From contig JBBQTB010000015.1 of the NCBI GenBank assembly GCA_038213375.1, forward strand, positions 385 to 64,384: a stretch of 64,000 bases of DNA, in the 5' to 3' direction. Below are positions 10,091-64,000 of the stretch, in pieces (positions within the stretch are counted from its first letter, which is position 1; each line of letters opens with the position of its first letter). The position numbers and the translations under genes are program-made. Source of the DNA: Bacteroidales bacterium. GTDB taxonomy: Bacteria; Bacteroidota; Bacteroidia; Bacteroidales; JAAUTT01. Below the pieces are notes generated by a model. It was not told the origin of the DNA and did not search any database. It saw only the letters and a program-made list of their open reading frames with translations.

Positions 10091-10936
10091 ATGTCGTACA
10101 ATTTATTAAAGGGTAAACGTGGTTTAATTTTTGGGGCTTTAAATGAGATGTCGATTGCCTGGAAAGTTGCTGAAAAGGCACATGAAGAAGGCGCAATATT
10201 TACATTATCAAATACTCCCGTGGCTATGCGTTTGGGAGAAGTTGATCAATTGGCTACCAAATGTGCCACTATTGTAATACCTGCTGATGCCACCAGTGTT
10301 GCCGATTTGGAAAAGCTCATATCAAAATCAGTAGAACATTTAGGAGGAAAGTTGGATTTTATTCTTCATTCTATTGGTATGTCCCCCAATGTTCGTAAGG
10401 GAATTCCTTATGATGATATTAATTATGAAAATTTTTTAAAGACGTTGGATATTTCGGCTCTTTCGTTTCACAAAGTACTTCAGGTTGCACGAAAACAAGA
10501 TGCAATTAACGAATGGGGTTCTGTGGTAGCTTTATCCTATGTTGCCGCGCAGCGCACTCTTGATAGTTACAATGATATGGCCGATGCAAAGGCATTGTTG
10601 GAATCGATCGCACGCAGTTTTGGATATATATATGGTAACGAAAAAAATGTACGGATCAATACTATTTCTCAATCGCCAACCATTACTACCGCGGGAAGTG
10701 GAGTGAAAGGTATTGAAACATTGATTGATTTTACCGAACGGATGTCTCCTTTAGGGAATGCCACAGCAGAGGAGTGTGCCGATTACTGTATAGCACTCTT
10801 TTCCGATCTTACACGCAAAGTGACCATGCAGAATTTATTCCATGATGGAGGCTTCTCCAGCATGGGTATGAGTAAAAAGGCTTTAAATCAATACGATAAA
10901 AGCTTTAAACCGTGTCCGGAAAAGGGAGAGAAATAA
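10091..10936 (+). CDS. fabI: Enoyl-[acyl-carrier-protein] reductase (FabI-type SDR)
   Basis: 281 aa. The LLKGKRGLIFG start, the HSIG motif and the overall FabI layout. Confidence 0.85.
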   Translation: MSYNLLKGKRGLIFGALNEMSIAWKVAEKAHEEGAIFTLSNTPVAMRLGEVDQLATKCATIVIPADATSVADLEKLISKSVEHLGGKLDFILHSIGMSPNVRKGIPYDDINYENFLKTLDISALSFHKVLQVARKQDAINEWGSVVALSYVAAQRTLDSYNDMADAKALLESIARSFGYIYGNEKNVRINTISQSPTITTAGSGVKGIETLIDFTERMSPLGNATAEECADYCIALFSDLTRKVTMQNLFHDGGFSSMGMSKKALNQYDKSFKPCPEKGEK

Positions 10937-10950
10937 GATTGAAAAAGGTT

Positions 10951-53830: not shown

Positions 53831-54223
53831 ATGAACGAACATATAAGTGAATTTTGTGTGCGAGACTACGAGTTGGATTTGCAGGGGATTGTGAACAACG
53901 CTAATTACCAGCATTATCTGGAACATGCCCGGCATGAATATTTATGCACGATGAATATCGATTTTGCTAAACTACATGATGAAGGCAAAGACCTGATGGT
54001 GACACGAGTTGAGATTGACTATAAATATCCGTTGAAAAGCCGCGATAAGTTTAAAGTGATAAGCTTAATGCATAAAGAAGGAAACTTGCGGATTGTTTTT
54101 GATCAGCATATCCTGCGAATACCTGATGGGAAAGTTATTATTAAGGCCAGGGTGATAGGCGTTTGTTTGTTAAATGGTCGACCAACTAAACCCGAATCTG
54201 TAATCGATTTGATTCATTTATAG
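53831..54223 (+). CDS. Acyl-CoA thioesterase (4HBT/YbgC hotdog fold)
   Basis: 130 aa with VRDYELDLQGIVNNANYQHYLEHAR, the typical YbgC-like N-terminus with catalytic Asp. Confidence 0.85.
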   Translation: MNEHISEFCVRDYELDLQGIVNNANYQHYLEHARHEYLCTMNIDFAKLHDEGKDLMVTRVEIDYKYPLKSRDKFKVISLMHKEGNLRIVFDQHILRIPDGKVIIKARVIGVCLLNGRPTKPESVIDLIHL

Positions 54224-54247
54224 TACAATTCGTATACAGGTCATATC

Positions 54248-54483
54248 ATGAGAGAAAATATAAAAAAACAATTTGGGTTATTGCCCGGGAATATAACCAA
54301 CAACGTAAGGAGCTAATTACATGCTTCGACGATTTCTATGGATTTCAGTTACTTGCTACGAAGGATTCCCCAAAACATCAAACAATACTTGATGTGGGCG
54401 CAGGTACTGGATTTTTAACATCATTGATTTACCAGATATTTCCTGAATCGCAGTATACTTTGATTGACTTATCACCTGAAATG
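54248..54483 (+). pseudogene. Class I SAM-dependent methyltransferase, N-terminal fragment (frameshifted, truncated)
   Basis: MRENIKKQFG.. shifts frame to ..IAREYNQQRKELITCFDDFYGFQLLATKDSPKHQTILDVGAGTGFLTSLIYQIFPESQYTLIDLSPEM. Similarity to methyltransferases ends at about 54483. Confidence 0.6.
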
Positions 54484-54602
54484 ACTTTTCAGGACAACAA
54501 CGGTTTGATGGAGTGGCGAATATTGCACAACATCCCTGCTGCATGGCACCTCGTTCTATTTTACCGCGCCGCCTGTTTCTTGTTAAATACGGATTGACTT
54601 TG

Positions 54603-54755
54603 CTTGCTGCGCAAATGTCGTTACAAATGACAATTAGAAAGGCACGGATTACAAATCCGAGCCAGCATGGGGGCTTACATGCGGGGGGGTACTCTCCATC
54701 GGTGAGAGGTGAAAGGAACAAAGTAGACGTTAGATGGCTAAAAGGTGAAAGGAAC
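54603..54755. repeat. Structured repeat copy A (3' of fic) plus 13-nt direct repeat
   Basis: CTTGCTGCGCAAATGTCGT-TACAA-ATGAC..GAAAGGCA-CGGATT-ACA-AATCCG..GGGGCTTACATGCGGG. AGGTGAAAGGAAC occurs at 54707-19 and 54743-55. Confidence 0.6.
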
Positions 54756-54779
54756 TCCCATTTGGGAACCTGTAAAATG

Positions 54780-55877
54780 CTATTCTTTTGCGTGATACCT
54801 AACTCCCCGTCCTTCGCCTGTTTTTAGCAATATACCTTCTCTGACCAGATAAGCAAGGTCTTTTTTTAATGTATTCCGAGAGTAATCTTTTAATTGACTT
54901 TCAAGTTCTCCAACTTGTATTGTTTTCTGTTCTTTAATGTATGCTAAAACAACTTGCTGACGCTCATTTAATACCGTTTTTAGCTTGCTGTAAGTTTCAT
55001 ATTTTGCATCAAGCTTTTGGGTTAATATAATCAGACATTCTAAAAAAAACAGTATCCAACTATCAATACGCTCAATTTCTTTGCCCCGATTCTTCTGACC
55101 TTCCATCAACGCCCTGTAATATTCTTCTTTCTTGGTTTCTATTACATTTTCAAAGGATACATACTGGATGAATTTGTAATCCTGCTTCATCAGCAATAGA
55201 GAAGTCAAAAGCCTTGACAAACGTCCGTTTCCGTCTTGGTACGGATGGATTGACAAAAACTCGTAAATAAACGCCGCTGTTATCATTAACGGGTGTAAAT
55301 CATTCTTTGCAAGCCTTTCGTTTGTCCATTCGATTAAACCCAGCATCTCATTGGGCGTTAAATGTGGTTCCGTTGTCCTAAATATTGTTCGCTGTGTGCC
55401 ATTTGGATAATTGGCCACTACTTGGTTAGAAAGGTTTTTGTATTTTCCTTTGTGAGCCTGGTCTTTGTTGCTATATTTTAAAAGAATGCCGTGCATTTGA
55501 TGGATGTAACGTTCCTCTAAAGCAATATCGACGTAACTGTCTAAAATGATTTCTAATGCTTCATAATAGCCCACCACTTCTTGTTCGTCCCGGCTTTGCA
55601 GCTTGGTTATTTTAACAGATTTCAAAAGCTTTTCTACTTCTTCATCGGTAAGTGTTGCCCCTTCAATACGGGTCGAAGAACCGATACTTTCTATCGTGGC
55701 TATTTTCCTGAGATCTTTCAAGTATTTGCTTTGTTGTCTTTCAATTGCTTTCCAGTTGCCTTTAAAGGTGTCTACCACGCTAAGTTGTTGGCTTATTTGT
55801 TGATAAACTGTACTGTTAAAGTCCAGTTTTATCTTCATATTATTAGGTATATCCATTTTGTATCCAATTTTATCCAA
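54780..55877 (-). CDS. Fic-family protein (AMPylase-type) with C-terminal wHTH
   Basis: 365 aa with the Fic motif HPYQDGNGRLSRLL. The C-terminal DNA-binding-like domain ends GEGRGVRYHAKE. Confidence 0.9.
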   Translation of the reverse strand: MDKIGYKMDIPNNMKIKLDFNSTVYQQISQQLSVVDTFKGNWKAIERQQSKYLKDLRKIATIESIGSSTRIEGATLTDEEVEKLLKSVKITKLQSRDEQEVVGYYEALEIILDSYVDIALEERYIHQMHGILLKYSNKDQAHKGKYKNLSNQVVANYPNGTQRTIFRTTEPHLTPNEMLGLIEWTNERLAKNDLHPLMITAAFIYEFLSIHPYQDGNGRLSRLLTSLLLMKQDYKFIQYVSFENVIETKKEEYYRALMEGQKNRGKEIERIDSWILFFLECLIILTQKLDAKYETYSKLKTVLNERQQVVLAYIKEQKTIQVGELESQLKDYSRNTLKKDLAYLVREGILLKTGEGRGVRYHAKE

Positions 55878-55914
55878 ATGTAATAATTATCTTTTTATCA
55901 CTTGATTAATGGGT

Positions 55915-56186
55915 ATATTTTTGTATTCCCGCCTTCAGCTCCTCTATTCCAGTCTGCCGTTATTTCTCAGTGCTTCCGGTGTATTTATGCCCGGGAAAAA
56001 GCTGCACCAGACCTAATTCATGGCCAGATTTTAAAAGGTTGGCGATGACCGATTGACGGATGGTTGTGGTATTCAAATTCATGTCGGGGAACAAGTGTAG
56101 AGCGCTTTCCAGTAAATAACTAATTCCTTCGCCTTTTTACGGTGGCCCGGATTTGGTAATTATTAAACTGTCGGTTTCGACAATTG
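55915..56186 (-). pseudogene. 3' fragment of a tyrosine recombinase gene (paralog of 59709-60572)
   Basis: The DNA aligns along its length with 59725-60000 (e.g. CCTTCAGCTCCTCTAT, CTTCCGGTGTATTTATGCCCGG, GATTTTAAAAGGTT.GCGATGACCGATTGACGGAT, ATTAAACTGTCGGTTTCGAC). The rest of the gene is missing. Confidence 0.8.
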
Positions 56187-56284
56187 GAAGACGAAGACAA
56201 ACAAACCATTTTCCGGCTTATCGATAAAATGCTCACCAATAAGAAGTTTAAAGACTTCTTCCAGAAAAATATTGCTGCTTTATA
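56183..56284 (+). pseudogene. C-terminal fragment of an XRE-type HTH regulator
   Basis: LEDEDKQTIFRLIDKMLTNKKFKDFFQKNIAAL* with no N-terminal HTH part. Followed by a small hairpin with a T-run (56299-56322). Confidence 0.4.
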
Positions 56285-56508
56285 AAAACAAGAAAACCGG
56301 GGTAGCGCGGTTTTTAGGTTTTTATCCTGTTGCCGGTTTGCAAAATCAGCTATGTTTCAAGCGGTATTGCAAATGCGGCTTATCTCTCCGAACTTTTAGC
56401 CGAGCTTAGGGCTTTGTCGATGTCGCGTATTTTGTATTTATCGGACATACACAAATAGAATTGGTATCGAAAAATACAAAAATTACCTAAAAATTTAACA
56501 AGCGACTC

Positions 56509-56961
56509 CTATAAAAAAATTCTTGCTGCGCAAATGTCGTTACAAACGACTGTAAAGAAAGGAACGCGATGCAATCGCGCTCCACCAGCTCGGCCGAACA
56601 TGCGCGCTAGCTGGGGAAGGAATTGACCTGTTGCTTTTACAGAACTCGCTTCTGCTGCATTAACTGCTCTAAATACAGTAGTCCCCGTATTAGCGGCAAC
56701 ACTATTGCTTACTCCAAAAAATATATTACCTGATGATACAATAACATTTTGCCTAACAACAAAAATACCAGTAGTAATCTTAGGTATATCTTCCTGTTCA
56801 ACTATATTATTATGAAAACCCTTATAGCTATGATGTGATTGGCCATAGAATATTGAATTTGCTGATACAGGTACGACTATTGAAGACATACAAAGAAGTA
56901 TTGAAATAATGATAATCACTATTTCAATACTTTTCCTAATATGTTCTATTATGTGTTTCAT
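56509..56961 (-). pseudogene. Chimeric ORF: TM/secreted N-part fused to a truncated orphan toxin-domain start, running into repeat copy B
   Basis: ...NTGTTVFRAVNAAEASSVKATGQF parallels ...[23 protein letters not shown] of the upstream toxin. The last about 35 codons are read from the repeat sequence. Confidence 0.4.
56522..56616. repeat. Structured repeat copy B (3' of toxin/immunity module)
   Basis: CTTGCTGCGCAAATGTCGT-TACAA-ACGAC..GAAAGGAA-CGCGAT-GCA-ATCGCG..CCAGCT-CGGCCGAACATGCGCGCT-AGCTGG. Confidence 0.6.
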
Positions 56962-56974
56962 CTAATTACCTTTA

Positions 56975-57286
56975 TTAAAAAGCAGTAATTATTTTAATGT
57001 CCCCTATTGGTTCAGGTCCTCTTAAAACTTCATATGTTTGATTTAGCTGAATAAGTTTTTTCACTTCCTCAATAAGCATAAACGATAATTTAGCGTTAAA
57101 AGGCTTGTCATAACTTGCTTCTCTAGTTTCATCAATTTTATAAATGAAACTAAATTGTCTTTCTCCAATTTTCATAAAGAGCCAATTAACTTTATCATCC
57201 TTTGGATGCTTATAAGAATTCAAAATATTACTTCTTTTTATTATCAATTCACCAGTAAAATGAAATTCTCTGTCAGTGGATATCAT
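56975..57286 (-). CDS. Putative immunity protein for the upstream toxin tip
   Basis: 103-aa cytoplasmic ORF, 9 nt downstream of the toxin ORF. The call is by position only. Confidence 0.5.
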   Translation of the reverse strand: MISTDREFHFTGELIIKRSNILNSYKHPKDDKVNWLFMKIGERQFSFIYKIDETREASYDKPFNAKLSFMLIEEVKKLIQLNQTYEVLRGPEPIGDIKIITAF

Positions 57287-57294
57287 AGTTTAAT

Positions 57295-57999
57295 TTATTT
57301 AGGGATAATATATGGAAGGACTTCTTGAGGAAAAGCATAAGCTCCAATATCGACATTCGGGTACCAAAACTTGTTAATATTAAGTGGTCCTTTTACGGTA
57401 GCTTCTATGACTTTATATCCATCTTTATACAGCCACTGTCCATATTGATGAGCATCTTCAACAGATTTAGCAAAATATTTAAGCCCAATATCTTGACCTT
57501 CTAAAGAAAATCTACCAGTACTATTAATAACAGCCTCCTCGGTTGCATTTACAGCTCTATAAATTGTTTGCCCCCCTGCGTTAGCGGCATTAGCAGCTTC
57601 GCCAACTTTTGCTAATTTATCCAATCCTTTCGTGCCAGCAACCGCTAAGCCAACTTGGGTAATAACTTCCCCTGTGAGTTCTCCTGCTTTTCCTCCAGTC
57701 TTATCATCTTTGGCTTCTTGAATAGTGTTTTTTACACTTTGTTTTATATTGTTATAAGCCTGTTTAGGATTTGTAGCAGCTACAGCAAGTCCAATTTTGA
57801 ATTGACTGGCAGGCGATGGGTCTAACATTTGAGCCACGCCTACCGCAGTATTCACAACTCCGTTGACTACTCCCTTTCCAACACCCTTTAGAAAATCAAT
57901 CCAGTCATTTCCATCTGGGTCGATAAAACGCATTGGATTATCAATTGCATAAACGTACGGACTCCATCTTCTGGACTTCTCTGCTAATCGGTCGACACT
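57295..57999 (-). CDS. Orphan RHS/YD-type polymorphic toxin C-terminal tip (no RHS core upstream)
   Basis: The open frame from 57999 reads [33 protein letters not shown], the conserved end of the RHS core (..SPY.Y..NNP..fiDPDG). A variable about 200-aa toxin domain follows. The track ORF starts at Met 57933. Confidence 0.7.
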
Positions 58000-58172
58000 C
58001 TAAAACCACTGCACACTATTTTTCCATCAGTTCAGGGCTCTACACGGTATTCAAAGAACATTAATTGTTTCATATACAGTTTAAAGATATAGTTTTTTTT
58101 CTTTCATTTGAACTTTTCATTTGAAAGAAAAAAAGGCTAGCGCGTTTTGGGGATGGGACGATAAAATAAAAA

Positions 58173-58254
58173 CGGCGCATAATAGCCATTAAACGCCATA
58201 CCTACGGGATTTTTGGGGATCCCTTCACCACGGCGTTTACTTTTCATTATGCGC
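58173..58254. other. Three-tier perfect hairpin (82 nt)
   Basis: GGCGCATAAT (58173-82) pairs with ATTATGCGCC (58245-54), TAAACGCC (58189-96) with GGCGTTTA (58231-38), and GGGAT (58205-09) with ATCCC (58218-22). Confidence 0.6.
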
Positions 58255-58381
58255 CATTAAAAATTGCTCCGAAGTTTTATAAATAATTAATTTATAGATT
58301 ATTGTTTCAAATAAAGGATTCTGATGAAAAGGCTCTATTGAAAAGAAAAAAAATAGCACGAGAGCGATATATTATCCTTTG

Positions 58382-58925
58382 TCACGGGTGAAGGGACGGT
58401 TGGAAAAAGGTTGGTGTAAAGATGAAGTAAACCCGTCCGTTCAGACGTGATGAAGGTGCCGGGGTTTGGGGGTGGATTAGAGCCACCAATTAAAAAAGCT
58501 TTTTTAAAAACTGTCACAGATAAAAAACAATGTGTAAAAGTGGGTAACTGTGAGTCGTTGTGAGCCGTAAGCGAGTGTGGCCGGGGGCTTGCAAAAGGGA
58601 ACATGAAGGATTGAGTGTTCTTTTGCAAGTCCCGCACGCGGCAAAGGGCCGTAACAACTTTAATAAATACACAACCTACCGGCCCTGCAGCCCCGGCCAC
58701 CCGTAGGCGAGCCAAACATGGGCAGCATCCGGGCCGTAAGCGTTGCCGTTAAGTTACGGTTATGTTGCTGTGGGCTTTGTGGCAATGCTTACGGAACGGG
58801 GGGCGCTGCCATGAGGAGGCGGAAGGAACGCTAAAGGCATGACGGCCTTGCCCTTGTTTGTAACTGTAAGTAAATAAGAGCTGTAAAAAGGGCAACCCAA
58901 CGGGCGGTACAGCTTATTTTTTAAC
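58382..58925 (+). ncRNA. Candidate large structured RNA (or ori/ssi-type DNA structure) of the element; strand tentative
   Basis: ORF-free and locally very GC-rich (43 of 60 bases G/C in 58681-58740). At least 7 nested stems. Two G-T pairs are tolerated only as G-U on the + strand. See findings. Confidence 0.4.
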
Positions 58926-58970
58926 CCTTAAAAATAAACATAAAAAAATGGGCTGTGCCGGGCTGGCGTG

Positions 58971-59068
58971 GCTTTTGCTGACGACTGAGGACGAATACCG
59001 CTTTTCCGACGTGCGTGTAAGGAGCTGTCGGTATTTATGGGGCTTACATGCGGGTGGAGGTCTCTTTC
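58971..59068. repeat. Structured repeat copy C (3' of ORF6N gene), with internal deletion
   Basis: CTTTTGCTG-ACGACTG..GAATACCG-(loop)-CGGTATT-TATGGGGCTTACATGCGGG. Abuts the ORF6N stop codon. Confidence 0.5.
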
Positions 59069-59626
59069 TTAACTCTCCTGTTTCGGGGGCTTAAAACCTA
59101 TTTTGGGGCGTTGTTTTTGTTCGAGTTCCTGTTGCTTGGATTTCTCAAATTGCTTCAGGTATTCAAATACCAATAAAATTCTGTCTTCATGGTCACTTAC
59201 CTGATTCTTTATCCGTTCTATCTCCAATAACACATCTTTATGGGTCATCAACATTTCACGCATCCTATTAAAAATACGGACTATTTGGATGTTTACATGT
59301 ATTGCCCGGTCACTGTTCAGTATGCTTGCAAGCATTACTGCGCCATGCTCGGTAAAAACATACGGCAAATATGGAGAGAACTTAAGCTTTTTAAGGTGGT
59401 CGCAATTTGCGACCACCTGATCTTTCTCTTGTTCAGTCAATTGGAACATAAAATCTTCAGGAAAGCGTTTAACATTACGTTTAACTTGTTCATTGAGCCT
59501 CTTTGTGGTTACTCCGTATAATTCAGCCAAATCACTATCAATCATAACTTTTAAATCCCTAACAAGTAGTATTTTACTCATTATTAATTCATCCGGGATT
59601 GCAATGTTTTTTATTGGCTCAGTCAT
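59069..59626 (-). CDS. ORF6N-domain (KilA-N-like DNA-binding) protein
   Basis: 185 aa: ILLVRDLKVMIDSDLAELYGVTTKRLNEQVKRNVKRFPEDFMFQLT...FTEHGAVMLASIL is the ORF6N signature. Confidence 0.85.
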   Translation of the reverse strand: MTEPIKNIAIPDELIMSKILLVRDLKVMIDSDLAELYGVTTKRLNEQVKRNVKRFPEDFMFQLTEQEKDQVVANCDHLKKLKFSPYLPYVFTEHGAVMLASILNSDRAIHVNIQIVRIFNRMREMLMTHKDVLLEIERIKNQVSDHEDRILLVFEYLKQFEKSKQQELEQKQRPKIGFKPPKQES

Positions 59627-59708
59627 ATTTAATTGTTTTACAGTTACAAAACTATTATTTTTTTCTTTGGTTTTGTTTTTAAGGTCACAATTTACAACCT
59701 TAAAACTT

Positions 59709-60572
59709 TCATTTCAATGGATGATACTTATTAATTCCGGCCTTCAGCTCCTCTATCCCCGTCTGCCTGTATTTCTCCGTACTTCCGGTGTATTTATGCC
59801 CGGCAAAGACCTGCACCAACCGTAAGTCATGGCCGGATTTTAAAAGGTTAGCGATGACCGATTGACGGATAGTTTTTGTATTTAAATTTCGGCCGGGGAA
59901 CAGGTATTGTGCTGTTTCCAGCAGGTAGCTGATGCCTTCTCCATTTTCAGGTGTTCCGGATTTGGTAAGTATTAAACTGTCGGTTTCGACTGTCTTTAAT
60001 TTCTGTCGGATGTTATGAATATACTTGTAAATTAACATGATCTGGTTTGGTCTTAATTTCAACGTCCGGCTGTTGGTCTTGGTGTCGGGTTTTATGTAGA
60101 TTGTTCCGGCTTCCAGATCAATATCTTTTAAGGTTAAACTTACGATGTCATTTCTGGTTAAGCCTTGGTAAATGAGTAAACTTATGATTGCCTGGTTCTT
60201 TATCTTCACATCTTTGTAGCGTTCTTTGCGTTCCATCAGCAGTTCCAGTTCTTCGGGTTTAAACAGGTCTTGTATTTGTATGTCCCTACTGGTTTTGTCC
60301 TTTAATTGGAGGTTGCGGCAGGGGTGGTCGTTGCGCTGCCCGGTGTGGTTGAGCCAGTAATAATATTTCTTGATGGCATGTATAATGACTTTTATTGTTT
60401 GGGGGTTGCTGTATTTCTTTCGCAATGTCCCCACGTAGTCCATTATATCACTGTAGGTTGCTGATTGTGCTTTTTGCTGGGTGATTGCTTCGAAGAAGTT
60501 TTCTATATCCCTGTAATAGCGGGATGCGGTGCTTTTTGTATGCCTTTTTTGTAAATACTCTTTTAGGTTCAT
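59709..60572 (-). CDS. Tyrosine-type recombinase/integrase (second of tandem pair)
   Basis: 287 aa with catalytic-region residues GLTRND, TIRQSVIANLL, AGHKY and EKYRQ. Its ATG overlaps the upstream integrase stop (ATGA). Confidence 0.9.
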   Translation of the reverse strand: MNLKEYLQKRHTKSTASRYYRDIENFFEAITQQKAQSATYSDIMDYVGTLRKKYSNPQTIKVIIHAIKKYYYWLNHTGQRNDHPCRNLQLKDKTSRDIQIQDLFKPEELELLMERKERYKDVKIKNQAIISLLIYQGLTRNDIVSLTLKDIDLEAGTIYIKPDTKTNSRTLKLRPNQIMLIYKYIHNIRQKLKTVETDSLILTKSGTPENGEGISYLLETAQYLFPGRNLNTKTIRQSVIANLLKSGHDLRLVQVFAGHKYTGSTEKYRQTGIEELKAGINKYHPLK

Positions 60573-61453
60573 AGTTCTGATAATCTTTTCTTTGATATTC
60601 TGGTATAAAGCTGTGTTGCCTCTAAATGCTTATGCCCTAAAAAATCACGCACATATTCTACTGACAGGCCGTTTTCTAAAAGGTGGGTGGCGATGGAGTG
60701 GCGCAGGTTGTGCAAACTGATTGCGCTTTCTATTCCTGCTTTTTTAAGGATGGCTTTTACTATTTTGTTGTAACCGTTCCCGTTTGTCCTCTTTCCTCCA
60801 CTGTTGGTTATAAATGCAAGTTCATTTTCTTTGGCAAATCGTTCGTTATGCAGGTAGTTTTTAAAATCGTTTTTTACCTTTTCGTTTATTGGTATTGCCC
60901 TGCGCTTGTTGCCTTTGCCTTGCCGTACATACATGAGCGAACTGTTAAAACTGATGTCTTTTATATTCAGGGCAACCCCTTCGCTACGTCTGAGGCCACA
61001 ACCATAAAACAGTCCTATGATGGCTTTCTCCCTGTTGGTTTCGCAGGTTTCATAAAGTTTTTTGATTTCTTCTACAGTAAGAATTTCACGCTCTTGGCTT
61101 TCAGGACGTGGGAAGTTTAGGCCGCTCATTGGGTTTTCGATGATCTCCCCGGTTTGTTCCTGGTAGTTTAAAAACAACCGGATGGCGTAAAGGTGGTGGG
61201 TTATCATCCGGCTGCTTAATCCGCCGGGTTTTCTTTGGTTGGGACGCTGGGTTAAATATTCGTAATGTGCCTGGATGTGTGGGGGCTGGATTTCGTGCAG
61301 GTTGTAAATGTCCTTTTGCGCTAACTGGCTTAAAAACTCGGCCACACAGGTGGGCAACATGCTTTGGCTGCTTTTGGAGTAGCCTAACCGCTCCAGATGG
61401 GTTTTAAATTGCTCCGTATATACACTTTTCTGGGTCATGGGTCGCAAAGCCAA
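60569..61453 (-). CDS. Tyrosine-type recombinase/integrase (XerC/D-like, first of tandem pair)
   Basis: 294 aa with R (GLRRSE), K (GKGNKRR), HxxR (LHNLRHSIATHLL), H (LGHKH) and Y (LYTR). Confidence 0.9.
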   Translation of the reverse strand: MALRPMTQKSVYTEQFKTHLERLGYSKSSQSMLPTCVAEFLSQLAQKDIYNLHEIQPPHIQAHYEYLTQRPNQRKPGGLSSRMITHHLYAIRLFLNYQEQTGEIIENPMSGLNFPRPESQEREILTVEEIKKLYETCETNREKAIIGLFYGCGLRRSEGVALNIKDISFNSSLMYVRQGKGNKRRAIPINEKVKNDFKNYLHNERFAKENELAFITNSGGKRTNGNGYNKIVKAILKKAGIESAISLHNLRHSIATHLLENGLSVEYVRDFLGHKHLEATQLYTRISKKRLSEL

Positions 61454-61542: not shown

Positions 61543-64000
61543 TTAAAGTTCATCGAGTTGGTTTTGCAGGTATTGTTTTATCTTGTTCCTGAGCGCTTTG
61601 ATGTTGTCCCAATACGTTATCTTATAGGTAAAACCACGATTTATAAAACCTCCCGATTGACTTATGTATTCAAGCTCCAATAAATCATTTAAATAGCGTT
61701 GCAATTGGCTTTTGCTAATGTTTAATGCCTGGCGTATTTCCCGTTGGGTAAACTTATAATTCTGGTATTCATTTCCCTGCTTCGTTATAAAAGCCTTCAA
61801 ATCCTCGTAAAACTGCCGTAGGCTGCCGTCCAGCTCGTCTATTTTCAGGATGATGCTCTCGAACATGATTTCGATGGCCGTTTGTATATCTTCCTTTTCG
61901 GTGATTAACCGTCCGTGATGGTCTCGCTTGCGTTGGTATTGGTTTAGGAGCGTGATTTGGTTGATGAAGGCGTGGTAAAGCTCTGTGAGTCGCCGTATTT
62001 TATGGGCTTCGGGTGGCAACAGTATTTTGTTGGCAAAAGGGTTGATGACCTCGTAAGGTTTTAGCATGCGGATACAGTTTTGGATAAATGCCTTTGTTTC
62101 CCGTTCTTCTGCTTTATTAATGCCCCCGGCGGCTCGCCGGTTCTGGTAATTTATAATCCGGTTGGTTTGGGCTTTGCTTTCATCCACGGCCAGTAAAAAA
62201 ATACGGCTCATGTTGTCTTCGTAAATTTCGCCACGGGTGGTGGTGGCGATGCTGCCGATGGGGCCGCGTACCCGTTTTATCTGCGCCCGTATTTGTCCGC
62301 TGCCTTCGTCCTTGGTGCTGGTGGAGCTGATGATCTCGCCATTGCTCTGCAGTTCACGAAAAGCAAATTCGGCTTCTTCTTTCAGGCCGTCAACATCTTC
62401 CAATGCGATGAGTTTGTGCTGTATTTCGTATTCGCCATAATTATAAAAACTACTTTCGGTAACGCGTGTAAGCCGTATCACGTCTTCCTTAGGCATTAAA
62501 TCGGTAATTTGTCGAGATAGATACGTTTTGCCACTTCCGCTACTGCCCTGTATTAGAGCGTGTAACGTGTCGGGCATTTTGTAACTGGTGGCTATTACAA
62601 ACAAAAATATGCGGTTGTTTTCTTCGCCTGTGATCCCTGCTTTTTCTATCTGCTGGTTAAACATTTTTATCAGGTTCTTTTGGTTCAAAAAGCTCAAACA
62701 CCTTTGCTGTTCGGAGATGGGGACAATAACTTTTTCATTCTTTTCTATCGGTTCGCTTTCTTTTATTTGCTGTTCTCTATGGCTATCAAGTAAATCGGTT
62801 AGACGGCTTAAATCTAATTCGATTAAATCAGCCCGTATTCCTAATTTTTCTCCAGCTTCCTTTGCTACTTTTTCCACTTGCTTATCTTCATACAGGTCGG
62901 GTTTGGTGCGGCTTTTTCGGCCTGTTGCGATGTTTTCTATTTCCAGGGTGATTTTCAGGCTGTCCATGGCTTTGGGGATGCCGCCTTTGATATGGTAAAT
63001 GGCGGTTTCGGTTGCGTAGGTTATTTTGTATGGATTGGTGGTATTTAGCTGTTGAGACACCATGCGTGGTGTCTGTATTGTACTGATTGGCTGTTGTCCT
63101 GCTGCTGTTTTTTCTTTTTCACCTGAACTGCTTTCTGTTGAAAAAGAAAAAGGCTTGCCCTGAGCAGGGTCGAAGGGCTTTCTATTGTTTAATAATTCTG
63201 TAAATATTCCCGGCTCATGCCCGGTTGATAAGCTATTAATGTCTTCGCCTTCGGGAGTTTCTACATAACTGATTTTTATTCCCGCTATTATTTCCCTTAA
63301 CTCGCCAGCCCTGGCATTTGCCCCTGTCCTTCCGGCTTCGTCACCATCAAAAAAGAAGATAATTTCTTCTAAATCTTTTAGTTCTTTGATGGCTTGTTTG
63401 TGTTCGTCGGTGATGCCGTTGGTCCCATAGCTTGCAAGTAGCTCGTAATTTTTTGTTATTCCCGAGATTTGTTGTAAACTGGCTGTGTCAATGATGCTTT
63501 CGGTAATGATTAGTTTGGTTGTTTCCGGTTTGGGATAACTTGGGTAAAGCCCTTTGCGGTTTAGGGTGTAGTAATGGCGGGCGTTATCTTTGTCCTTGAT
63601 ACTTCGCCCGTAGAGGGAAACGATTTTATTTTGTTTGTCCCTCAAACCGAAGGTGATGCAGCCTCGCAAATAATTGAAACGGCTTTCTTTAAAGGCATTG
63701 TAGCCTATTTGCAAGGTTTTCCAGTTTAGGTTGCGGCTTTCGGCGTATTCCCTTGCGGTGCTGCTGCTTAAAAAGCTGCTTTGCATTTGCTCAAAGTTAG
63801 CTTGGTAGTTTTGTATAGTTTCTGTTTTGGGTGTGGTTTGTGGCTTGTCATCTCTTGCTTGGCCTTCTGCAAGTTGGGTCAGGTATATCAAAGCTTCATG
63901 GGTGGTTATGTTTTTGTATTTTTCGGTAAGGCTTACGATGTCCATTGTGCCGGCTGTGCAGTTGCTGCTAAAACAGGTGCAGATGTTTTTCTCACGGCTA
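61543..64000 (-). CDS. CHC2-zinc-finger/Toprim DNA primase fused to a P-loop NTPase; N-terminus off the right edge
   Basis: The frame stays open upstream of Met 63945 to base 64000 (..SREKNICTCFSSNCTAGTMDIV.. is the CHC2 finger). Toprim motif (IITESIIDT...FFFDGDEAGR) and Walker A GSSGSGKT. Confidence 0.85.
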   Translation of the reverse strand, partial: SREKNICTCFSSNCTAGTMDIVSLTEKYKNITTHEALIYLTQLAEGQARDDKPQTTPKTETIQNYQANFEQMQSSFLSSSTAREYAESRNLNWKTLQIGYNAFKESRFNYLRGCITFGLRDKQNKIVSLYGRSIKDKDNARHYYTLNRKGLYPSYPKPETTKLIITESIIDTASLQQISGITKNYELLASYGTNGITDEHKQAIKELKDLEEIIFFFDGDEAGRTGANARAGELREIIAGIKISYVETPEGEDINSLSTGHEPGIFTELLNNRKPFDPAQGKPFSFSTESSSGEKEKTAAGQQPISTIQTPRMVSQQLNTTNPYKITYATETAIYHIKGGIPKAMDSLKITLEIENIATGRKSRTKPDLYEDKQVEKVAKEAGEKLGIRADLIELDLSRLTDLLDSHREQQIKESEPIEKNEKVIVPISEQQRCLSFLNQKNLIKMFNQQIEKAGITGEENNRIFLFVIATSYKMPDTLHALIQGSSGSGKTYLSRQITDLMPKEDVIRLTRVTESSFYNYGEYEIQHKLIALEDVDGLKEEAEFAFRELQSNGEIISSTSTKDEGSGQIRAQIKRVRGPIGSIATTTRGEIYEDNMSRIFLLAVDESKAQTNRIINYQNRRAAGGINKAEERETKAFIQNCIRMLKPYEVINPFANKILLPPEAHKIRRLTELYHAFINQITLLNQYQRKRDHHGRLITEKEDIQTAIEIMFESIILKIDELDGSLRQFYEDLKAFITKQGNEYQNYKFTQREIRQALNISKSQLQRYLNDLLELEYISQSGGFINRGFTYKITYWDNIKALRNKIKQYLQNQLDEL

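Follow-up and report, generated by a model that had tools for sequence, protein, structure and literature searches.

Three related non-coding repeats beside paired tyrosine recombinase genes in a Bacteroidales contig as probable cargo-slot tails of an Rhs-associated integrative element

The window analysed here (64,000 nucleotides of a Bacteroidales contig) contains three related non-coding repeats, A, B and C, close to two overlapping tyrosine recombinase genes, rec1 and rec2, whose products are about 290 aa long (Table 1). A sequence-only reading had proposed that the repeats are attC-like sites, att copies left by serial integration or an RNA motif. The question is which of these, if any, they are. 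We consider it probable (about 0.6) that A, B and C are diverged tails of the cargo slot of an integrative element which inserts at the Y-G-F-N-G codons of rhs genes, and that the window holds serial copies of this element.

Table 1 Features of the window discussed in the text
Feature	Position	Strand	Description
Recombinase gene scar	54490..54560	-	Putative remnant of a decayed tyrosine recombinase gene; Box II-like ...GMLCNIRHSI...
Repeat A	54603..54779	+	29-mer with hairpin 1, hairpin 2, ACATGCGGG block, 2 x AGGTGAAAGGAAC
Cargo gene fic	54780..55877	-	Fic domain and DeoR-type HTH; Pfam Fic 3e-15
rec1 3' fragment	55915..56193	-	Residues about 191-283; 82% nucleotide identity to 59724-59990
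HTH regulator gene tail	56181..56285	+	C-terminal 34 codons; tblastn matches to HTH genes of relatives
Orphan Rhs-type toxin tip region	56509..58005	-	Displaced; Rhs core-end remnant fused in frame to ORF 57295-57933
Repeat B	56522..56616	+	Tail 3' of toxin/immunity module
P	58094..58134	.	Two TTCAnnTGAA-type operator copies; T/A-rich, promoter-like; upstream of orphan tip
RNA-like structured module	58140..58978	+	Antisense to recombinase genes; RNAalifold and pair counts
Repeat C	58971..59068	+	Final 8 nt of closing helix, then conserved tail GACGAATACCGCTTTTCC ... TTACATGCGGG
Cargo gene ORF6N	59069..59626	-	ORF6N/Rha-type DNA-binding protein; Pfam ORF6N 6.5e-32; intact element
rec1	59709-60572	-	Xer-like tyrosine recombinase; Pfam Phage_integrase
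rec2	60569-61453	-	Xer-like tyrosine recombinase; Pfam Phage_integrase
Primase-helicase-like replication gene	61543..64000	-	Toprim/DnaG core and C-terminal winged helix (Pfam, NCBIfam)

Sequence, folding and termination

The 29-mer CTTGCTGCGCAAATGTCGTTACAAAYGAC is common to repeats A and B (54603-54631 and 56522-56550) with one mismatch; 0 chance matches are expected and the 64 kb hold only these two copies. To the right of the 29-mer the two are diverged homologous sequences of about 55% identity, and to the left they are unrelated. The ordered blocks previously described for three copies were confirmed over about 95 nt in A and B but not in C, whose likeness to the others is confined to two short blocks. 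A and C share the 19-mer GGGGCTTACATGCGGGKGG (54670-54688 and 59039-59057). The pattern GGCYKWACATGCGSG matches all three copies if one mismatch is permitted in A and one in C, and was matched four times at up to two mismatches (0.5 expected). The GAAAGGMAC box was found four times against 0.9 expected, but this count was reached in 4 of 100 shuffles and the excess is marginal. The 13-nt direct repeat AGGTGAAAGGAAC reported after A is present, nested in a 22-nt repeat (54698-54719 and 54734-54755). As had been noted, each copy is located on the 3' side of minus-strand genes; B overlaps the 3' end of ORF 56509-56961. The repeats are GC-rich islands within AT-rich DNA.

Hairpin 2 stands in the same register in A (CGGATT-ACA-AATCCG) and B (CGCGAT-GCA-ATCGCG) with both sides changed at three pairs, exactly as first read. 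On both strands, folding is better in A and B than in shuffled sequence (z -2.7 to -3.5). In contrast, C and its relatives in loci L033, L017 and L018 gave z values near 0, and the tails of relatives share no consensus fold: C-type tails are conserved in sequence, and their fold is no better than that of shuffled sequence. If the repeats were a small RNA, or a cis-acting motif within the 3' UTRs of the mRNAs for cargo, the compensatory changes in hairpin 2 and the GC richness would be accounted for. However, A, B and C had no match in Rfam, even at E up to 10, the tails of relatives lack a common fold and the covariation comes from two sequences only, which makes this explanation highly improbable.

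Hairpin 2 of B together with the GAAAGGAAC box is an ordinary intrinsic terminator of the minus (gene) strand, the hairpin and T-rich tract running from 56583 to 56561; A and C do not qualify as terminators. A bidirectional terminator is located at 56292-56315, after the HTH gene tail, and in L036 the HTH gene is followed downstream by a B-like hairpin, CACGATGCAATCGTG. In both L036 and L114, small GTT-NNN-AAC hairpins whose stems covary are repeatedly found after genes. These recurrent hairpins, the textbook terminator in B and the equal folding of A and B on both strands would all suit repeats that are only terminators, or REP-like palindromes between genes, and are functionally unconnected to the recombinases. 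We nevertheless judged this quite unlikely. It is because the 29-mer occurs just twice in 64 kb and C-type tails keep their primary sequence and a fixed position relative to rec1 where the rec1 proteins are only 45-55% identical.

The structured module beside copy C

Copy C abuts an RNA-like module of about 0.8 kb that is conserved and specific to one strand. Its closing helix pairs 58830-58848 with 58960-58978 and has 17 bp, with compensatory changes at 12-15 pairs; it is strand-specific, with a U.G pair that does not vary and A.G mismatches conserved at two positions. Bases 58560-58584 and 58693-58712 form a second long-range helix, and a hairpin occupies 58584-58633. The covariance model R1 matches 58791-59009 at 147 bits, the module has no Rfam family match, and its GC content is 0.46-0.50 compared with 0.38 for the window. 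Judged from sequence, the conserved folded structure is this neighbouring module and not the repeats. The earlier proposal of selection on structure applies to the module and not to C-type tails. The start given for copy C (58971) also shifts: 58971-58978 are the end of the long-range helix, and the conserved unit begins further upstream.

The stem raises the possibility of integron-like cassettes. The helix (7 bp, mismatch, 4 bp, mismatch, 6 bp) would be the folded single-strand analogue of attC, the tails an attI-like partner, and the RNA module, fic and toxin/immunity cassettes would be swapped at a ...CTTTT(T)G|C junction. Apart from the strand-specific, strongly covarying stem with its invariant U.G pair and conserved A.G mismatches, this is favoured by L018, which lacks the whole 650-nt module with a CTTTTTG|CC junction, by L017, where CTTTTTG stands on both sides of the module, and by the homology that A and B share with C, which begins near the 3' end of the closing stem. 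However, other module deletions (L030, L029 and the second L100 copy) stop at varied internal points, which suits ordinary decay. On its left, A breaks off about 8 nt within the 3' strand of the stem and off the junction, and the sequence adjoining P is not conserved between lineages. Further covarying long-range helices, as the module has, would be expected if it is an RNA but not if it is cassette cargo. The recombinases also argue against it. Against the integron-integrase model they score 33 and 120 bits (cutoff 265), in agreement with the first reading that they are not IntI-like. Both are under every NCBIfam cutoff, those of XerC, XerD and IntI included, and their best sub-threshold models are XerC/XerD (110-172 bits against equivalog cutoffs of about 330). 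We therefore regard integron-like cassettes as very unlikely, and the attC-like sites were not borne out, since no inverse-core/core pair was found and what C-type tails preserve is sequence rather than fold.

As in integrons, co-oriented modules end in a related non-coding element near recombinase genes, and one module boundary carries a strand-specific stem of attC-like size. Unlike in integrons, the recombinases fall short of the IntI model, core and inverse-core boxes are absent and the tails are unfolded; the arrays also hold fragments of recombinase and regulator genes, so they would have grown by accretion of whole elements.

The element in related loci

The order HTH | primase, rec2, rec1, with the regulator divergent, was found in dozens of the related loci, with fic, ORF6N or toxin-antitoxin genes directly 3' of rec1 (fic in L018, L029 and L035). 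Homologues of the C-type tail lie downstream of rec1 and its cargo in at least 12 distinct loci, which supports the supposed link of the copies to the recombinase pair. The indels in their blocks are not multiples of three. Gene order varies by lineage, and in L008 the tip stands between rec1 and the tail. Among the genome-collection loci, the named hosts are mostly Cytophagales, Saprospiraceae and other non-Bacteroidales Bacteroidota.

The boundaries were read in relatives with clear element boundaries. Direct repeats of Rhs codons (Y-G-F-N-G, TAYGGNTTYAAYGG) bound an 8-9 kb element in Aureibacter pAT2, a Cyclobacterium genome and a Cytophagaceae MAG. In Aureibacter pAT2, a unit of 8169 bp is present twice (99.98% identity) and the 14-nt core TAT(C/G)G(T/G)TATGGATT occurs at all three junctions. 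The first of these lies in the gene of a 2390-aa RHS protein, and beyond the last comes a different toxin tip. A 22-nt repeat recurs in L017 at a spacing of 8240 bp, and the cores in L006 are 9270 bp apart, which is the tandem period. In total, TAYGGNTTYAAYGG was found 58 times in 40 of 114 loci, every time on the recombinase strand. Of the 37 loci that extend far enough, 17 have it downstream of rec1, mostly at a distance of 0.8-2.1 kb; on the upstream side it lies 5.4-7.2 kb away in 16 of 23. Because these direct repeats inside rhs bound the whole unit, the insertion site would be the conserved Rhs core end. The tail lies inside these boundaries, with one Y-G-F-N-G junction about 1 kb away, and the tails are thus most probably not crossover sites.

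Near-identical direct repeats around a decayed backbone, A and B also resemble attL and attR. They could be the ends of a smaller unit, HTH-primase-rec2-rec1-fic, integrating through rec1/rec2 at a module-end site, with the crossover in the 29-mer and inverted arms GCAAATGTCG / YGACWRTWA around the 7-nt spacer TTACAAA. The 29-nt near-identity with its unrelated left and diverged homologous right border (about 55%), the direct orientation of A and B exactly bracketing the backbone remnant, and the sole mismatch directly after the putative spacer are in line with this. On the other side, the arms are short and imperfect, the A/B-type 29-mer is absent from all 114 related loci, leaving no second example, and the backbones of L114 and L017 lack a comparable flanking repeat pair, the unit boundaries being at Rhs codons. 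We therefore consider the smaller unit unlikely.

Under the cargo-slot reading, A, B and C would each be a diverged copy of the same backbone feature in a family of Bacteroidota integrative elements, namely the non-coding tail after a variable cargo slot. The element would run from the divergent HTH regulator through primase-helicase, rec2, rec1, cargo, tail, antisense module, P and a leader to the Rhs core-end codons Y-G-F-N-G, a toxin tip and its immunity gene. Inserting at the conserved core end, an incoming element would fuse its own tip to the resident Rhs and displace the old tip and immunity gene downstream, orphaned behind P. The tails would end cargo transcription by hairpin 2 and a U-tract (clear in B, weak in A) and probably also hold protein-binding sequence, since their conserved blocks are unpaired.

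Tip displacement in Rhs is usually attributed to homologous recombination or unspecified transfer. Orphan toxin/immunity arrays produced by displacement of Rhs C-terminal tips (Jackson et al. 2009, as cited in PMC13183296) have the same layout: behind a main rhs gene come displaced tips that have each kept a short core-end piece and their immunity gene, and new tips substitute old ones at the conserved core end. The account in PMC13183296 describes tip displacement without a dedicated vehicle, and our literature search found none. In contrast, here an 8-9 kb unit (two tyrosine recombinases, primase-helicase, regulator, structured module) travels with the tip, and its ends are marked by short direct Y-G-F-N-G codon repeats. 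Recombinase-associated acquired interbacterial defence clusters of Bacteroidales (rAID-1; Ross et al., bioRxiv 10.1101/471110; PMC12247911) are also headed by a Xer-like tyrosine recombinase followed by co-oriented short genes of toxin-immunity type, and their repetitive intergenic sequences were called reminiscent of integrons. By description, they are set apart by one recombinase, orphan immunity gene arrays and restriction to Bacteroidales, with primase, HTH and rhs target unreported, as against two recombinases, a replication gene, whole-element remnants and mostly non-Bacteroidales named hosts here.

Islands targeting tRNA or tmRNA genes and P4-like primase elements, which integrate site-specifically at the 3' end of a conserved gene and replace it, likewise carry a tyrosine recombinase, primase-helicase and regulator together; such elements accrete in tandem at one site and bring a replacement for the severed part of the target gene. 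What is targeted here, however, is a repeat motif in the protein-coding sequence of a polymorphic toxin, the replacement is a new, different toxin, and there are two recombinases, neither with an obvious arm-binding domain. The pair of about 290-aa Xer-like recombinases recalls XerC/XerD-dif systems and IMEX, but the pair described here is element-encoded and scores far below the equivalog cutoffs, and no dif-like 11-6-11 site was identified for this element. A structured non-coding module at the element end beside a recombinase gene is also known from IS110/IS1111, whose DEDD/serine-type recombinases use bridge/seek RNAs that pair with target and donor DNA (PMC11208158); here the recombinases are of the tyrosine type and the complementarity of the module to the att core is no more than expected by chance.

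Serial copies in the window

The window contains one intact copy (ORF6N, tail C) and at least two decayed ones. By the cargo-slot reading, repeated arrivals and subsequent internal deletions would have left the present array: an intact backbone that carries ORF6N and tail C; toxB, the displaced tip, with tail B and a putative immunity gene; the remains of an earlier backbone, namely the HTH tail, the rec1 3' fragment, fic and tail A; and, older still, the recombinase scar. Serial arrival, which the sequence-only reading had suggested, is supported by the rec1 fragment, the HTH tail and the rec1-fic units of L035 and L018, but the crossover sites appear to be the Y-G-F-N-G repeats and not the copies.

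Repeat A is the non-coding tail 3' of fic in a decayed element and the positional ortholog of the fic-downstream tail in L035 and L018, where rec1-fic is an intact unit. As the intact rec1-fic of L035 (84% identical to 54781-56166) precedes a C-type tail, A is read as the counterpart of C, and these relatives are the main support for that homology. The rec1 fragment (tblastn, 79.6% aa identity) is directly joined to the HTH gene tail. Such a joint is expected from an internal deletion, of which the fragment would be a leftover; internal C-terminal rec1 fragments recur elsewhere (e.g. L026 and L029-L032). The matched HTH genes stand divergent from primase in L007, L010, L029 and L036. The scar adjoins a truncated methyltransferase pseudogene (about 54250-54489) and shares a 24-nt match with rec2 (54507-54530 and 60692-60715); tblastn gave no match for it, and its origin from an even older element copy is only weakly indicated.

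The orphan tip has a core-end remnant of 31 residues and is followed 3' by a putative immunity ORF (56975-57286) and ORF 56509-56961. The toxB core-end match is weak (tblastn with the Aureibacter RHS core end, E 0.038) and the ORFs have no Pfam match; the layout agrees with the orphans annotated in L114, where a main rhs gene precedes displaced tips, each with a short core-end piece and immunity gene. Since neither a Y-G-F-N-G core nor a full rhs gene was seen within the window, the rhs link there rests on the synteny of relatives. P, inferred to be an operator and promoter, is conserved in L002, L004, L017, L018, L027, L029 and L030, and also lies directly upstream of the primase gene in L017 and L033 (second match, L033 2950-2996).

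In the intact copy, the tail of C lies 3' of ORF6N. An ORF6N gene also stands 3' of a rec1 fragment in L031, and L033 is colinear over the whole stretch at the nucleotide level. The N-terminus of the primase-helicase extends beyond the window end, its alignment passing the listed ATG to 63975 with L017 and to 63992 with L033; the full-length L033 protein has an N-terminal CHC2 zinc finger and a Walker A motif.

The probable rhs target of the element

Repeats A, B and C, the non-coding tails after the cargo genes (fic, toxin/immunity and ORF6N), are an ordinary part of the locus: accretion and decay have multiplied what are tails of the backbone and terminators. What is of interest is their surroundings: an rhs-targeting element and an uncatalogued structured module.

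Positions of features in the window and in related loci (L-numbers)
Feature	Sequence	Positions	Remark
Repeat A	window	54603-54779	
Repeat B	window	56522-56616	
Repeat C	window	58971-59068	
Structured module	window	58140-58978	
Fic + HTH	window	54780-55877	Pfam
ORF6N	window	59069-59626	Pfam
Two Phage_integrase proteins (rec1, rec2)	window	59709-60572, 60569-61453	Pfam
Toprim/DnaG-like protein	window		Pfam; runs out of window
P (putative operator/promoter)	window	58094-58134	
P	L017	6007-6028, 12204-12248	
P	L029, L030		several copies
Element between Y-G-F-N-G direct repeats	L114	7785-24136	
Element between Y-G-F-N-G direct repeats	L017	4096-12357	
Element between Y-G-F-N-G direct repeats	L006	2769-12052	
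Post-immunity repeats	L114	9377-9469, 25320-25435, 26308-26426, 26574-26657, 27135-27335	

In pAT2 of Aureibacter tunicatorum (L114), a complete replicon, a 2390-aa RHS gene is followed by an immunity gene, HTH, primase, the two overlapping recombinase genes (rec2, rec1), the module recognized by the covariance model R1 and an RHS orphan. The unit, which is 8169 bp long, is then repeated with 99.98 % identity between the copies, and further orphans follow. All three junctions carry TAT(C/G)G(T/G)TATGGATT, a 14-nt core that encodes Y-R/G-Y-G-F at the Rhs core end. The full-length RHS gene contains the first junction, the left half of which is of the host type; a different tip (a type 47 toxin) follows the last one. 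In L017, these codons form a 22-nt repeat with its copies 8240 bp apart, and in L006 they recur 9270 bp apart, which is the tandem period. An att core repeated in direct orientation on either side of the inserted unit, a feature of site-specific integrative elements, was observed in the relatives L114, L017 and L006, which include a Cyclobacterium genome and a Cytophagaceae MAG.

When all 114 loci were considered, TAYGGNTTYAAYGG (Y-G-F-N-G) was found 58 times in 40 of them, always on the recombinase strand. It is located downstream of rec1 in 17 of the 37 loci with enough sequence (mostly 0.8-2.1 kb) and upstream of rec1, at 5.4-7.2 kb, in 16 of 23 loci. As the boundaries are at Rhs codons, both tail and module belong to the interior of the element, at a distance of about 1 kb from one att junction. 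The element probably inserts into rhs genes and displaces the old toxin tip, and an excised circle in pAT2, if formed, would join leader to tip across TATGGGTATGGATT.

In the case of L008 (Saprospiraceae), the Y-G-F-N-G core (10924-10937) is 75 nt after rec1, with tail and module further downstream. Thus, the architecture of the element differs between lineages, and we infer that the cargo slot of L008 is filled by a toxin tip.

Rhs and other polymorphic toxins exchange their tips by displacement, and arrays of orphan tips and immunity genes are left behind; to our knowledge, the acquisition of new tips has for the most part not been explained. In the relatives, a dedicated vehicle for tip exchange is indicated, a self-contained element with its own recombinase pair, replication gene and regulator. 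This vehicle would land in the conserved last Rhs core repeat, install a new tip with its immunity gene and keep the displaced tip under its own promoter. Toxin exchange in Bacteroidota would then be active and site-specific, which is directly testable in the cultured strain Aureibacter tunicatorum NBRC 107587 with its two tandem copies.

The closest descriptions found were rAID-1 clusters and the Rhs C-terminal displacement arrays (PMC13183296, citing Jackson 2009). The criterion for a rAID-1 recombinase is an identity of at least 44 % to BF9343_RS08045 (bioRxiv 10.1101/471110; PMC12247911). The window resembles rAID-1, which has at least two co-oriented low-GC downstream genes and conserved intergenic motifs, in that its downstream genes are on the minus strand with a GC content of 0.36-0.37 and A, B and C lie between them. 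However, rAID-1 is a single recombinase heading orphan immunity genes, whereas the window has two recombinases and a primase, and its array holds fragments of recombinase and HTH genes. In addition, rAID-1 belongs to Bacteroidales, whereas most hosts named for the genome-collection loci are Cytophagales, Saprospiraceae and further Bacteroidota outside the Bacteroidales, with other phyla given in a few MAG titles. Neither a recombinase-borne rhs-targeting element nor a tyrosine-recombinase-associated structured RNA was found in the open-access literature, an absence that is not proof of novelty.

The structured module and P

When the region ending in the C block was aligned, CTGGCGTGGCTTTTGC was recognized as the 3' strand of a long-range helix, the partner of which (GCAAAAG-A-CATG-A-CAGCCT) is roughly 40-130 nt upstream. 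In the window, this closing helix pairs 58830-58848 with 58960-58978. Among 10 sequences, 93.5 % of cells were paired and both sides had changed in 12 of the 17 pairs; none of 500 shuffles reached the observed values and slid controls were 24-49 % paired. In 30 model matches, 15 of the 17 pairs covary. One U.G pair, which never varies in the 10 sequences and hardly ever in the 30 matches, ties the fold to one strand, the one antisense to the recombinase genes.

Conservation extends upstream, where another long-range helix (58560-58584 with 58693-58712) covaries at 7 of 17 pairs and a hairpin (58584-58633) covaries as well. The GC content of the module is 0.46-0.50 versus 0.38 for the window. 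Being large, strongly covarying and without an Rfam family, the module is a candidate for a new class of RNA whose genetic context is defined. The CTGGCGTGGCTTTTTG block was considered as a terminator and dropped once alifold paired it with GCAAAAGACATGACAG, which precedes it by about 110 nt. The interval 58171-58258, at the 5' end of the module, which is variable, contains an imperfect inverted repeat of 40 nt (70 % complementary). This part could not be aligned with L017, and the interval from P to the aligned part is approximately 490 nt in L033 versus 240 nt.

R1 gave one match per element copy, on the antisense strand and 32 nt to about 2.2 kb after the end of rec1 (L002, L003, L005, L008, L017, L033-L035, L053, L054, L088, L089, L100, L114 and others); without exception, the module follows rec1 and is antisense to it. 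In L005, L064, L066 and L114 the match is at most 100 nt from rec1, which leaves no room for a cargo gene. The window was matched at 58791-59009 only, with no match in A and B. The module is absent from L018 and partly deleted in L030, L029 and the second L100 copy, with varying end points. For more distant relatives, a covariance model search with filters off gave only matches of 11-13 bits right after rec1.

The module (approximately 0.6-0.8 kb) and the adjoining conserved, unpaired tail may be a functional partner of the paired recombinases, either as RNA or as a folded single-strand site, with Rhs re-arming by insertion at Y-G-F-N-G. We consider this unlikely, with a probability of roughly 15 %. 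As RNA, it would be a scaffold, regulator or guide. If true, this would be a nucleic-acid-assisted tyrosine-recombinase system which re-arms Rhs toxins. In the IS110 family, the loops of bridge/seek RNA are complementary to target and donor cores, and the recombinase class differs from that of the window. A guide role found no support from simple complementarity, as uninterrupted Watson-Crick pairing of the module with the att core (+/-20 nt) extended over no more than 6-10 nt in 10 loci, which is not beyond that of shuffles.

The closing stem and tail could also be a second recombination site. However, the evidence for a fixed breakpoint is thin: the break in A is inside the stem strand and other module deletions end at varied points elsewhere, for which reason a fixed crossover at the left edge of the tail was rejected. 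We also rejected the tail as part of the fold, because it does not pair with the 5' region and no hairpin is common among tails.

P, between module and leader, consists of paired TTCAnnTGAA-type repeats within a T/A-rich stretch; P sites are found upstream of orphan Rhs tips, and a second site precedes the primase gene in L017 and L033. P is probably the operator of the HTH regulator of the element, and it may also be the promoter that keeps the displaced tip and immunity gene expressed.

The array in the window and its probable decay

In intact relatives, the order is HTH (divergent), then primase, rec2, rec1 and cargo. In the window, 55915-56181 is a copy of the rec1 3' end (82 % identical) and directly joins the 34 C-terminal codons of an HTH gene on the plus strand. 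Thus, 54603-56290 was considered as an old backbone with an internal deletion, and the serial integration proposed by the sequence-only reading is borne out by these remnants. In L018, L029 and L035, fic comes directly after rec1. In L031, ORF6N comes after a rec1 fragment, and the colinearity of L033 with the window spans ORF6N. Fragments of the rec1 C-terminus turn up again in other genomes. A and B could instead be attL and attR of the backbone, as they provide 29-nt direct repeats bracketing it.

Taking 54603-56290 as a deleted old backbone, the minus strand would read primase, rec2, rec1, ORF6N and tail C, then module, P and leader. These would be followed by a truncated core end, the orphan tip (ORF 57295-57933, a displaced Rhs toxin C-terminus), a putative immunity ORF, ORF 56509-56961 and tail B. 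Next would come the end of the HTH gene, the deletion, the rec1 fragment, fic and tail A, and then a recombinase scar and host genes. A stretch of 31 residues, the putative core-end remnant preceding the orphan tip, is in frame with ORF 57295-57933; its tblastn match to the Aureibacter RHS was weak (E 0.038) and there were no Pfam matches. A core-end remnant (...SVDPL...DPxG) with a variable C-terminal domain and a small immunity gene is clear in L114 and L017. No Y-G-F-N-G core was found in the window, and the missing att core is read as decay. From synteny, the main rhs gene of the locus, if present, would be on the same strand beyond position 64000.

To the left of A, 54250-54600 is a frameshifted, truncated class I SAM-methyltransferase remnant (..LDVGAGTGFLT..DLSPEM) fused to unrelated sequence. 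Together with a Box II-like remnant, the truncated methyltransferase weakly hints at a still older scar, and the array seems to have destroyed its own original left flank. Integron cassettes are excised as circles that insert at attI. Exact-protein look-ups for such rearrangements, an empty site or alternative junctions gave the same arrangement only, from one sample (SRR19962014), with rec1 not on record. No tRNA or tmRNA target was found near the array.

At the other end, the primase-helicase ORF (61543-64000; listed ATG at 63945) is cut by the window edge, and its homologues have a CHC2 zinc finger at a start some 59 codons further upstream.

Repeats A, B and C and their counterparts

The repeats are real: A and B have the 29-mer CTTGCTGCGCAAATGTCGTTACAAAYGAC in common, with two copies in 64 kb and 0 expected by chance. 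When the window was compared with itself, GGGGCTTACATGCGGGKGG was found to be common to A and C, and the duplication of AGGTGAAAGGAAC was confirmed. The degenerate 15-mer matches at A, B and C if one mismatch each is allowed for A and C, and the GAAAGGMAC box is present at a count barely exceeding chance. In hairpin 2, three pairs differ between A and B and every change is compensated, as had been noted. The proposed selection on structure is seen in the adjoining module. Of the repeats themselves, A and B, taken as single strands, have more stable folds than their shuffles for either strand (z -2.7 to -3.5), but C and its relatives do not (z about 0).

The sequence-only reading also likened the repeats to attC sites, which are imperfect palindromes with an inverse core RYYYAAC and a core GTTRRRY that fold as hairpins. 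This is not supported. No such boxes are present in A, B and C, C and its homologues are no better folded than shuffles, and A and B form only small local hairpins. The recombinases are not IntI, as had been stated (integron-integrase model TIGR02249 with its extra domain, 32.9 bits for rec1 and 119.7 bits in two separate stretches for rec2, versus a cutoff of 265); both are Phage_integrase by Pfam and neither reaches any NCBIfam cutoff.

The link of the repeats to the recombinases was upheld by the C blocks CTGGCGTGGCTTTT(T)GC ... GAYGASGAAYRCCGCTTTWCC, which at least 12 distinct loci have on the opposite strand downstream of rec1 and cargo. At the protein level, rec1 of these loci is only 45-85 % identical to that of the window. 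Tail indels are not multiples of three, so the sequence is non-coding and a coding origin was ruled out. In L035, a rec1-fic segment 84 % identical to window element A is followed by a C-type tail and then by approximately 25 nt of an ORF6N 3' remnant; A therefore holds the position of C. A, B and L018 have a short tail type without the GACGAA block. No conserved site was visible downstream of the HTH gene across loci.

In B, which is inside the 3' end of ORF 56509-56961, hairpin 2 and a T-rich tract make up an intrinsic terminator on the gene strand (56583-56561, minus strand; 10 pairs, tail TTTCTTTACA). The arrangement in A is the same except that its tail is weaker; neither A nor C was called as a terminator. 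Downstream of the HTH gene, the close relative L036 has a near-identical B-type hairpin in which one pair has changed with compensation. In Aureibacter, five copies of a repeat of approximately 90 nt follow immunity genes, with a hairpin CAAGTT-TGT-AACTTG and a terminator; its loop and top equal hairpin 1 of A and B (GTCGTT-TGT-AACGAC, gene strand) and its outer stem is changed on both sides. From these examples, repeated module ends seem to be a general by-product of such arrays.

No further A/B-type copies were detected in 109 loci, whether by BLAST, by nhmmer or with a profile derived from A, B and L018. When 54200-59800 was compared with Rfam 15 (E up to 10), the sole match was a chance miRNA (E 3.6), with nothing for the repeats or the GC-rich module; across the whole window, the gathering score was reached by tRNA-Pro only. 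The C-terminus of ORF 56509-56961 over B (56557-56640, minus strand) showed a weak likeness to the Rhs core end (...PFGLQMIGRMTGAKGYRYGF; E 0.55), which is probably due to chance.

In L036, the palindrome TTGGGTTTGCAACCCAA with conserved flanks is found on either side of the 3' half of the HTH gene (66-82 and 333-349, a distance of 267 nt), and looks like a small repeated or inserted element. One Saprospiraceae MAG (L003 3421-3700; L019, L023, L025, L028) contains at least five paralogous units of rec1 3' end, cargo and tail, which share 89-96 % identity and carry different cargo; tandem 90-nt duplications of tail pieces were observed in L003.
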